From Callorhinchus milii (taxonomy: Eukaryota), in NCBI RefSeq assembly GCF_018977255.1, contig NW_024704772.1:1922001-1986000 (forward strand): a stretch of DNA of 64,000 bases, in the 5' to 3' direction. Both the position numbers and the translations under genes were made by a program. Below the pieces are notes generated by a model that saw only the letters and a list, made by a program, of their open reading frames with translations, was not told where the DNA came from and ran no database searches. Positions 49,911 to 55,903 of this stretch are shown here, piece by piece (within the stretch, counting starts at the first letter, position 1; each line of letters starts with the position of its first letter).

Positions 49911-52900
49911 CTACGTGTACTCGCAGAGATGCCCGCACCCCGCGGGGCAGTGTGCGTGAAGCTGGAACCACTCTCTGATGTGCTGGAGGTGCCCTCCGTG
50001 GGCACAAGCCTGGCACCACACAAACAGGCCCTTCACTGCGTGGTGACAGATGGCACAGGAGCTGGCTCGGTGCCGACACCTGGAAGAGAGGAAGGGAAAG
50101 CGCTTAGAGCAAAACACACAGTCACTACGTCTCACAGTAAAATACCACCATACACTTTGAGACCAGGTGAAAGATGCTGTAACAGCCCAAGGATTATTAT
50201 TATACTATTATATTATTTGGAGTCCTGTAACATGGTGGTCAGTGCGTTCGCCTCACAAGCGAGAGGATCTGGGTTCGATCCCCTGGGAGAGTCGGGGCGA
50301 AACCTGAGGCAAGTTTCCTCACTCCACGCACACACACACGCCCGCGCGCGCACCTCTGTTTACCCAGTAGGAACCCGGTTGTTAGTCGATTGGCGGATCG
50401 CTATTTCAGGGGTTAATAATCGCTCCAAAAAAAGTACAGAAATAAATTTGGTCACTCAACAATCCTCGGACTGTGTGCCGTTGGCTGCCCCGTTCCGCCC
50501 ATAAGACACACTTTGCAGTCAATTCACTTCAGGGTATATTCCGTGAAGCGCTTTAGGACATCTCAAAGGACGTGACTCGATTACTCGAGACCCTCCTCTT
50601 CGACCCGCTTCTGCCCCCACCCTCCCGCTCCCCCACCCTTCCTGATCCCAACTCCCATCTCTGACTGTCCAGCGTCTCGGGAACGTCCCCTCGACGCGAG
50701 AGGCGCCGTGTCAGTGCCGTCTGTCCTTGTGATCGGGCGCTATATCAAATGTGGGGATTATTATTATTGTGGTGATACGTTCAGCTAACATCGGTCGCCA
50801 GATTTCCACGGAGACCCTCCGTTTGCCGCGCTCACCTCTCGCACACCCAGCCCCGTCTGTTCATGGGCCGCCGGCAGTTGCTGCAGTTGATGTGGAGGGT
50901 GGTGGATGCCTGGTTCAGGCCACTGACTGACCTGCACGGGCTCAGCTTGATCACCTCATTAGCCACGTTCCACAGGCGGAAACGCTGCAGCAGATCGATG
51001 TACGACATGTACCAGTGCTCCTGACCCCGGGAGAGAGAGAGAAGGGGAGAGAGAGAGAGAGAGAGAGGGGGGGGCAGAGAGAGGAACGTAGGAGGAGGGA
51101 GGGAGAAAAGGGAGTGAGAGGGAAAGGGAGAGAGGGAGTGAAGAGAGAGGGGGGGAAAAAGGGATGGTATTTACTTCTGGAAAGCATTTAAGACGAGAGC
51201 GCTTACAGAGTTTTGTGCACGGCAGCGCCTCACAAGCAGTTGTGAGGGATTATTGGAGGGGATTATTACCCCCCACCCAACCCCGTAAAAGCCATCCGCC
51301 AATCGACTCACAGCCGTGTTTCTTCCTACTTACTGCGCGGTAAACAGAGGCGCGCGTGTGTGTGCGTGCGTGTGCGTGTGGAATAAGGAAATTTTATTTT
51401 AATTTTTGAGCAGCGCGTGTGAGCGACATACCTGTGTTTGCTCGTCGATTTCCTTCCTGATCCTGTCGCCGAGGACGACGAGGACAGAGACGGCCATCTG
51501 CACGTCCCCCCGCTCGGCGTACAGGCACATCATGTCCCTGACGATGGGGTTGAAGTAGTCGGGGGCGAAGCCGGGCTGGGGGAGAGGCTGGGGGAGGGAG
51601 AGCAGCGAGATGCCCTCCGTGGGGCTGAGCGACACACAGTCGGTCTCGCCGCCGCTGGGCTGGGGGGAGTCCGTCTCCTCCGCGAGGGGGTCCGGGGTGT
51701 CGGGGTGGTCCACGAGCTCGTGACGCAGCGTGAAGCCCTCCTGAGGCAGGACCAGCTCCTCCCCTGCGCGGCAGAACGATAGCCAACATTTTAAGCAGGA
51801 TTCATTAACAACAACAACAACAACAAGAAATCCTTGCATTCGACAAGAGCACTTGGACTGATCATCGCCGCTGAGACGCCTCGAAGCGCTTCCCGCGATA
51901 TGCTGTCAAGTGTAGTGACTTGTGGGCGAAACTCGGCAGCCAATTTGTGCACAGCAGCGTCCGTTCCCCCCGCAAACAGTTGTCGGCCAGGACGCCGGGG
52001 GGGTGGGGGGGGGGGGAGAGAGAGAGAGAGATAGAGAGAGACTCTCCTCTCTTTTCCAACAGCACCCCCCGGGGATTTTTTTTAACGTCCATCCGGCTGG
52101 GATGGGAGCGAGGTTTGACGCCTCATCCTGAAGGAATGCCGCACGCACACGCACACATACACACGCACACGCGCGCGCGCACACACACGCACGCACGCAC
52201 ACCAGCCAGCGCTGAGCTGGAGAGTCAGCTTGAGACCGCGCACTCGGAAACCTTCCCGCGCCCGGTCTCCGGCCATCGCTCACCCCGGGCGCTGTCGTGG
52301 TCGTCGGCGAAGAAGAACAGGTCGTCTTCCTCGCCCTCCCCGTCGGCGAACAGCCCCTCGGCCGCCCCGTCGCTCCCCTCCGTCCCCTCGTTTTCTGCAA
52401 GGACGGGGGGGGTTTAATCCGACTCCAAACGGGAGAGAGAGCGGGGGCGGGGAGGGGGAATAGACCTTGTGGGGTGGGGGTGGGGCGTGTGGAGGAACGA
52501 GGGACGGGGGGAGTGAGAAAGGGAAGAGTAGGGAGTGGGGGTGAGAGAGCGTGGGGAGTATGAGGAGAAAGAGAGAGGGGAGAGAGAGGGGGGAGTTTGA
52601 GGAGAGAGAGAGGGGGGGAGTATGAGGAGAGAGAGGGGGGTGTATGAGAGGGGAGAGGGGGGAGTATGAAAGGGGGTATGAAGGGGGGGAGAGCTGGCGG
52701 TGGGGATGGGGGGGGAGGGGGTTTGCTTCCTCTCCGCTCACTGTTACCCTCGTTGTGCTGCAGCAGGGCTGAGGCGGGGGCCAGGGGGGTCAGGCTGTCA
52801 TCCCGGGACTCCAGGCGGCCGCAGTCCAGCTTCTTCTCGCTAACCAGAGTGGGGCTGCGGACAGCGAGAGGGGGGCGCGGGGGGGAGAGAGGGGGTGGGA

Positions 52901-55900: not shown

Positions 55901-55903
55901 CAT
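49911..55903 (-). CDS. WDR24: GATOR2 complex subunit WDR24 (ortholog or divergent paralog), 9 coding exons, about 808 aa
   Basis: Exons 55903-55827, 55524-55142, 54746-54569, 54135-53251, 52854-52748 (alternative in-frame donor at 52742), 52394-52284, 51763-51432, 51020-50836, 50079-49911. Sum is 2427 nt, in frame. N-terminal WD40 repeats ([60 protein letters not shown]), [18 protein letters not shown], and a C-terminal zinc/RING region [23 protein letters not shown]...[16 protein letters not shown] gap at 54917-55067 falls inside an intron. Confidence 0.93.
50219..50580 (+). mobile_element. tRNA-headed SINE in the last WDR24 intron
   Basis: Same family motifs. Confidence 0.8.
54917..55067. 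other. Assembly gap (WDR24 coding intron 2)
   Basis: Run of N. Confidence 1.
55525..55826 (-). mobile_element. Degenerate tRNA-headed SINE spanning the whole of WDR24 coding intron 1, flanked by CATCAG direct repeats
   Basis: The intron starts gtcagagcgctcgcctcgcaag (SINE head), contains ggcgaaaccttagggaagtttccttactcc and tagtcgcttggcggattgctttt, and has aaggcgctattatcaaa (SINE tail) near its end. Plus-strand ctgatg occurs at 55525-55530 and 55827-55832. Confidence 0.8.

Follow-up and report, generated by a model that had tools for sequence, protein, structure and literature searches.

A second WDR24 gene in chimaeras, sharks and rays, probably an ohnolog of canonical WDR24

A 64,000-nucleotide stretch of the Callorhinchus milii genome (assembly GCF_018977255.1, contig NW_024704772.1, positions 1,922,001 to 1,986,000; referred to as the window) contains a WDR24-like gene, which differs from the canonical WDR24 gene of the same species and belongs to clade B of the gene trees described below. 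Gene models built from splice sites, combined with Pfam matches, gave the order PHF5A(-), ACO2(+), WDR24-like(-) and POLR3H(-) along the window (Table 1). The same order had been given in a preliminary description of this DNA, and it holds, with gap-free intergenic intervals on both sides of WDR24-like. The window has three runs of N, none of them in the intervals that separate WDR24-like from ACO2 and from POLR3H. The only run in this region (54917-55067) lies inside WDR24-like, within intron 2, and every exon is present. Therefore, neither junction is a scaffold gap. The stop codon of POLR3H and the ATG of WDR24-like are 2.4 kb apart. The interval between these two genes (55904-58284) has a single AATAAA, at 57991, and a CpG observed/expected ratio of about 0.9 across much of its length.

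The WDR24-like model was built from splice sites on the minus strand of the window. The coding sequence has 2427 nt and encodes 808 aa in an open frame with one terminal stop. All eight introns (302-756 nt) have GT-AG borders. The eight coding introns noted in the preliminary description were thus found again, with nine coding exons, and a retrocopy origin was rejected because of them. The domain order is a WD40 propeller, a donated-blade region, an alpha-solenoid, a disordered linker, and a zinc finger with a RING domain. The RefSeq protein XP_042201012.1 ("WDR24-like", Callorhinchus milii) represents the same gene: exon 2 is 100% identical, and the proteins differ only in 24 aa, which RefSeq splices out as a ninth intron of 72 nt. 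This stretch (about 53993-54064 on the minus strand, exon 4) is in frame and Gly/Pro-rich, and has weak splice signals. It is probably a coding loop insert and not an intron, because its last residues are an RE pair, aligned to the KE/RE conserved in every other vertebrate row shown.

Table 1. Genes of the window and coding exons of WDR24-like
Feature	Position	Strand	Remarks
PHF5A	20406..34454	-	Pfam PHF5; head-to-head with ACO2
ACO2	35884..47723	+	Pfam Aconitase in 3 of the 4 exons searched; tail-to-tail with WDR24-like, 2.2 kb stop to stop
WDR24-like (clade B paralog)	49911..55903	-	9 coding exons, 808 aa
POLR3H	58285..61964	-	Pfam SHS2_Rpb7-N on exon 1; upstream of WDR24-like, same strand
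WDR24-like exon 1	55827..55903	-	77 nt
WDR24-like exon 2	55142..55524	-	383 nt; equivalents of human R46, K120, R121 and S155
WDR24-like exon 3	54569..54746	-	178 nt; R167 equivalent
WDR24-like exon 4	53251..54135	-	885 nt, 77% GC; R228 and M273 equivalents; 72-nt in-frame Gly/Pro stretch
WDR24-like exons 5-7	52748..52854, 52284..52394, 51432..51763	-	linker and solenoid
WDR24-like exons 8-9	50836..51020, 49911..50079	-	C-terminal zinc finger and RING; stop 49911-49913

The window protein matched human WDR24 (PDB 7UHY chain C) end to end with 1047 bits, compared with 118 bits for WDR59, and contains the Pfam domains WD40 and zf-RING_16. It resembles human WDR24 in its full-length match, domain order, Sestrin2-contact residues, S155 and zinc ligands. 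However, it is a paralog, which is 61% identical to primate WDR24, compared with 76% for the canonical copy of the chimaera. Its gene also has a different intron set and the putative Gly/Pro loop insert, and no bony-vertebrate member was found in the protein collections, among the best 120 matches per search. The yeast counterpart of WDR24 is Rtc1/Sea2 in SEAC. A structure was predicted on the RefSeq form, which lacks the 24-aa stretch. The propeller (residues 11-330) mostly has a predicted local distance difference test (pLDDT) score above 85; the solenoid is likewise predicted with confidence, helices lie at 410-458 and 624-707, and the linker is disordered. The mean pLDDT is 68 and the predicted template modelling (TM) score, pTM, is 0.49. 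The top Foldseek match is the WDR24 of GATOR2, with a TM score of only 0.43 because the orientation of the domains is not fixed in the model.

A second C. milii protein, the canonical "WDR24" (XP_007903054-7), lies on a 16.8-Mb record, and the WDR24-like gene lies on a 4.04-Mb record; the two proteins are 60% identical overall. The preliminary description had offered three origins for the gene: an extra paralog, reciprocal ohnolog loss, or a lineage-specific relocation. The first is borne out. The other two are excluded: C. milii also has a canonical copy, and this copy clusters with bony-vertebrate WDR24. A single relocated WDR24, a reciprocal loss or an assembly misjoin might be suspected in a scaffolded assembly with N gaps, but is extremely improbable, given the canonical copy in the same genome and the gap-free intergenic intervals. 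In addition, an older C. milii annotation joins exons 1-2 of WDR24-like to exons 7-9, and skate Wdr24-1 and Polr3h stand in one identifier block (PMC10115646). Clade B proteins were found in at least 20 named species, including a holocephalan, sharks and batoids, among the protein cluster members listed (for the main canonical cluster 15 of its 55 members, and for the main B cluster 15 of 19). Thirteen of the 20 species also have a canonical (clade A) record among the matches listed. In all 13 two-copy species, the B record is on a different, shorter sequence than the canonical one; for Scyliorhinus torazame the length comparison is uninformative, since its B records are small scaffolds.

Phylogenetic trees were reconstructed with amphioxus and hemichordates as outgroups; a 50%-identity cluster search supplied nothing but outgroup sequences. 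Four trees were computed: a quick tree of 54 rows, two trees of 29 rows (LG+G4, and LG+C20 with posterior mean site frequencies), and a tree of 24 rows without the long window branch. The smaller sets drop near-duplicates, fragments and long-branched rows of the 54. All the trees agree: the B proteins are monophyletic, with the chimaera gene branching first; clade A groups with all the osteichthyan genes; lamprey and hagfish fall outside both. With an amphioxus outgroup and lamprey included, as the preliminary description had proposed, B is sister to all other jawed-vertebrate WDR24, after the cyclostome split. In the LG+C20 tree, the support is 100/100 for B, 100/99 for A with osteichthyans, and 99/96 for gnathostomes without cyclostomes. 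The approximately unbiased (AU) test rejected B with A, that is, a duplication in chondrichthyans only (p = 0.0012, 0.0046 and 0.0011 in three analyses). It also rejected B outside A, osteichthyans and cyclostomes (p = 0.0041, 0.014 and 0.0067), and B with cyclostomes (p = 0.0038, 0.014 and 0.0080). B with osteichthyans was rejected in one analysis (p = 0.0003); B is not the ortholog of bony-vertebrate WDR24. The gene trees place the duplication of B and A after the invertebrate chordates and before the chondrichthyan-osteichthyan split. At the 44 columns separating elasmobranch B from A and osteichthyans, the window protein has the B state in 23, the A/osteichthyan state in 9, and neither in 12. 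The window row is compositionally odd, and its removal left the tree result unchanged.

A profile of five B proteins identified no osteichthyan B among the best 120 of 745 near-length and the best 120 of 308 shorter matches. At a 62% identity cut, 245 of the 441 fetched proteins were vertebrate-like: 35 B, 192 canonical and 18 cyclostome. Of the 35 B rows, 34 belong to named chondrichthyans, and the last is an unnamed open reading frame (ORF), which is 98% identical to a skate protein. B-diagnostic residues make up at most 25% in each of the 192 canonical-type rows. Below the cut, none of the 64 rows with a vertebrate best match fell in B in the tree; four are bird canonical fragments and 60 lie outside vertebrates. 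Three bird fragments that BLAST had ranked with B were placed beside the bird canonical gene. The remaining 131 proteins with an invertebrate best match and one without a match were left outside the B placement. No B type was present among 22 further records from coelacanth, gars, bichirs, sturgeons, paddlefish, bowfin and early teleosts. These results suggest that B is truly absent from bony vertebrates, and it was likely lost once, on the osteichthyan stem. The loss in mammals supposed in the preliminary description is thus supported, but not its restriction to mammals, as B appears to be missing from every bony vertebrate sampled (coelacanth, lungfish, bichir, sturgeon, gar, bowfin, teleosts and tetrapods). 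Records of sturgeon, paddlefish and bichir named "WDR24-like" were rejected as B, with no B-state residue at the diagnostic columns. They are canonical-type duplicates; therefore, the RefSeq label covers two unrelated events.

Intron positions were compared indirectly, by means of genomic ORFs that extend into introns. In fish and mammals, the canonical-type genes have an intron after an RNQ/RPQ motif, where the skate and chimaera B genes read through. The B genes of chimaera, catshark and skate have an intron after a PLS motif. Canonical-type ORFs also read through the position of chimaera B intron 1 (55525-55826), which may be specific to the chimaera. Intron 4 (52855-53250) is common to the shark and skate B genes, and its position was not seen in the canonical-type ORFs.

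Human ACO2 and POLR3H are presumed to adjoin on 22q13. Human WDR24 maps to chr16:0.68 Mb (PMC10208646), on the chromosome named in the preliminary description. In the little skate, the B record is on a sequence of 13,149,398 bp, the size of the 37th skate scaffold (PMC10115646). Within chordate linkage group H, LER37 is listed as the beta copy, which corresponds to gar LG12, and LER20 as the alpha copy, which corresponds to chicken 14 (PMC10115646). The skate canonical WDR24 record (39.3 Mb) has the size expected for LER20 (PMC10115646). By these size matches, we infer that the skate B record is LER37 and the canonical one LER20. The skate B gene appears to be on a microchromosome orthologous to 22q13, which is the paralogon partner of 16p13. 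The identifier of skate Wdr24-1 (LE04255) falls among those of Baiap2l2, Cbx6, Triobp, Rbx1, Tomm22, Cenpm, Mcm5, Ncf4, Polr3h and Rbfox2 (30 of the 50 places shown; PMC10115646). Because the identifiers are not in positional order, the block supports a shared chromosome, not adjacency. We take these neighbouring names to belong to human 22q12-13. The block LE042xx-LE043xx also holds Tfap4-1, Emp2-3, Nr1h2, Prr12 and Lrrc4b (PMC10115646). Tfap4-1 and Emp2-3 are possibly further retained ohnologs, and the mixture suggests that two beta segments of linkage group H are joined on one skate chromosome. The Tfap4 and Emp2 families are assumed to be those of human 16p13, and Nr1h2, Prr12 and Lrrc4b are assumed to be 19q13 genes.

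The date in the trees, together with these locations, bears on which of the two rounds of vertebrate whole-genome duplication (1R and 2R) produced the gene. In paralogon 4 of Lamb 2021, column A holds RBFOX2 and SOX10 (human 22, gar 12), and column B holds RBFOX1 and SOX8 (human 16, chicken 14) (PMC8040251). Columns A and B split from C and D at 1R; therefore, 22q13 and 16p13 are 2R sisters in that scheme (PMC8040251). This fits the single paralogon, with the SOX10/SOX8 pair, to which the preliminary description assigned both regions. An alternative is that WDR24-like is a 1R ohnolog, shared in principle with cyclostomes, and that its branching after the cyclostomes is a tree artefact or reflects delayed rediploidization. 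In the skate table, LER37 is entered under 2-beta and the ortholog of chicken 14 under 1-alpha, which would make them 1R paralogs (PMC10115646), and the difference in intron position at two or more sites between the clades fits a long separate history. However, in each of three analyses the AU tests rejected both 1R-type topologies (p 0.004-0.014). According to Simakov 2020, placing the H-beta copy in 2 was an arbitrary choice (PMC7269912), and human 22 is paired with human 16 by Lamb (PMC8040251). In addition, rediploidization after 1R was mostly complete before the cyclostome split (PMC10972751). A 1R origin is thus unlikely. The gene tree, as an estimate from one protein family, sides with the pairing of Lamb 2021 and is one data point on the disputed pairing within linkage group H, favouring 22q13 and 16p13 as 2R sisters.

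The two copies appear to lie on paralogous segments of one linkage group, as indicated by the neighbours of 22q13 type (at locations that we assume), the skate data and the paralogon 4 columns in published tables. A small-scale duplication on the jawed-vertebrate stem, with the copy landing in a 22q13-type segment or moved there later, could give the same tree, which supplies a date and not a mechanism. The introns differ from those of the canonical gene, and there is no paired microsynteny; the flanking PHF5A, ACO2 and POLR3H are presumably single-copy. However, with about 40 chromosomes available, a copy would be unlikely to land by chance on just the paralogous partner segment, and the timing coincides with 2R. 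This origin is considered very unlikely. Some form of whole-genome duplication very probably produced WDR24-like, and 2R is the probable round, with the gene apparently on the beta copy of linkage group H, which is small and GC-rich.

The chimaera copy has diverged strongly. Its end branch is 0.6 in the LG+C20 tree, compared with 0.04 for the canonical copy. The GC content at third codon positions (GC3) is 0.91 in the WDR24-like coding sequence versus 0.71-0.74 in the ACO2, PHF5A and POLR3H pieces, and that of the first and second positions is 0.60 versus 0.45-0.49. The fraction of Gly, Ala, Arg and Pro (GARP) is 0.355 in the window protein, compared with 0.22-0.27 in other gnathostome rows, and Gly-rich insertions are present. 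The local GC shift thus seems to reach the composition of the protein. Compared with shark B, the protein is 85% identical in the solenoid and 80% in the C-terminal domain. In the chimaera lineage, the B gene is fast-evolving and GC-shifted, and appears to be under looser constraint.

The human GATOR2 cage contains two WDR24-SEH1L units, and Sestrin2 binds a basic WDR24 surface via R46, R121, R228, M273 and V274 (PMC12507694). K120 and R167 are also implicated in Sestrin2 binding (PMC10938194), and AMPK acts on S155 (PMC11340815). The human numbering was carried through a 790-aa primate WDR24 row and checked against the human WDR24 match. In the alignment, R46, K120, R121, R167, R228, M273 and S155 are kept in all 14 B rows. 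The seven Sestrin2-binding residues (R46, R121, R228, K120, R167, M273 and V274) are complete in the 13 elasmobranch B rows, and six of them are kept in the window protein. All 16 vertebrate-invariant C-terminal Cys/His residues are kept in 14 of 14 B rows. The blade-donation motif is recognisable, well kept in sharks and diverged in the chimaera, with low pLDDT in the single-chain model. Since the functional residues and Cys/His are kept, and the model matches the WDR24 of GATOR2, WDR24-like is likely an interchangeable or alternative GATOR2 subunit, as judged from sequence and model. It would complete the SEH1L propeller with its donated blade, and lock to MIOS via the zinc finger/RING tail. 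The basic propeller surface would face the Sestrins, and mTORC1 would thereby be held back when leucine is short. With two WDR24 subunits per cage, co-expression of the two genes could yield A/A, A/B and B/B cages.

The B copy was probably kept via a partition of expression between the copies. Skate Wdr24-1 is expressed; one table, with 6,887 rows, gives it a baseMean of 137, a log2 fold change of -4.8 and an adjusted p of 8e-12 (PMC10115646). The two sample groups of this table are, according to the text, anterior and posterior pectoral fin (PMC10115646). Between the two groups, Wdr24-1 changes about 29-fold, compared with 2.6-fold for Polr3h. If skate Wdr24-1 is B, this hints at a restricted expression of B. 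The same difference hints that cartilaginous fishes might have two kinds of GATOR2, with B restricted to tissues or stages and B/B or A/B cages coupled differently to Sestrins or GATOR1; this setting would have been lost by bony vertebrates about 430 million years ago. This remains a tentative and rather doubtful suggestion.

Taken together, WDR24-like is an intact second WDR24 of chimaeras, sharks and rays. It is probably the 2R partner of the canonical gene, with one likely loss on the stem of the bony vertebrates, and its product is predicted to be an interchangeable GATOR2 subunit. Several points weigh against this interpretation. The tree is based on one gene, and its cyclostome rows have an odd composition that can cause them to be misplaced. 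The absence from bony vertebrates was established in annotated and predicted proteins, within the best 120 matches per search. The placement between ACO2 and POLR3H is known here from C. milii alone, and skate Wdr24-1 is equated with B by its identifier neighbourhood, in a block that also holds the names assumed to be from 19q13. The filing of LER37 as 2-beta is a further such point. The chimaera B protein changes 22 of 273 otherwise invariant vertebrate sites, compared with 4 of 255 in the canonical copy and 9 of 260 in lungfish. Among these changes are V274L, which adjoins the Sestrin contact, and several within the donated-blade region (pLDDT <50). Together with the end branch, GC3, GARP fraction and Gly-rich insertions, they might point to a decaying duplicate with little or no function in the chimaera, while elasmobranch B is conserved; this would be compatible with an ohnolog origin. 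However, the 808-codon frame is open, the splice sites are intact, the named functional residues are kept, the solenoid and C-terminal domain still resemble those of shark B, and the propeller is well predicted. Decay therefore seems improbable.

The event type is already known, and the gene is already automatically annotated. The RefSeq name "GATOR complex protein WDR24-like" of chondrichthyans is an automatic label, which includes the window gene as XP_042201012.1 and carries no ohnolog statement. To our knowledge, each GATOR2 subunit has been regarded as the product of a single gene in vertebrates. The paper on the little skate genome counts 19 ohnologs that were retained in chondrichthyans and lost in bony fishes, and reports that beta segments show more loss and faster evolution (PMC10115646). 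WDR24-like resembles these ohnologs in its phylogenetic pattern, beta-segment location and faster evolution. Unlike them, it would be a core subunit of a stoichiometric signalling complex, not a ligand or receptor. WDR24 may or may not be among these 19. A description of WDR24-like as an ohnolog was not found in the literature searched, mostly outside subscription journals, and an earlier mention is possible. WDR24 was also not found in 12 of the 24 supplementary files of the whale shark paper or in one supplementary file of the ohnolog database paper. In the elusive-gene paper, human WDR24 is listed only as non-elusive (PMC10208646). As the event class is well known, the surprise is modest unless the function differs. 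The conservation of a second WDR24 in chimaeras, sharks and rays shows that two were present in the jawed-vertebrate ancestor. The gene might also serve as a natural variant, about 70% identical and with conserved contacts, to probe which surfaces of WDR24 determine mTORC1 output.

Elsewhere in the window, a GC-rich, promoter-like stretch at 12100-13450 contains proline-rich low-complexity ORFs next to an N gap, and may be exon 1 of the gene that follows. In the human order the next gene is presumably TOB2.

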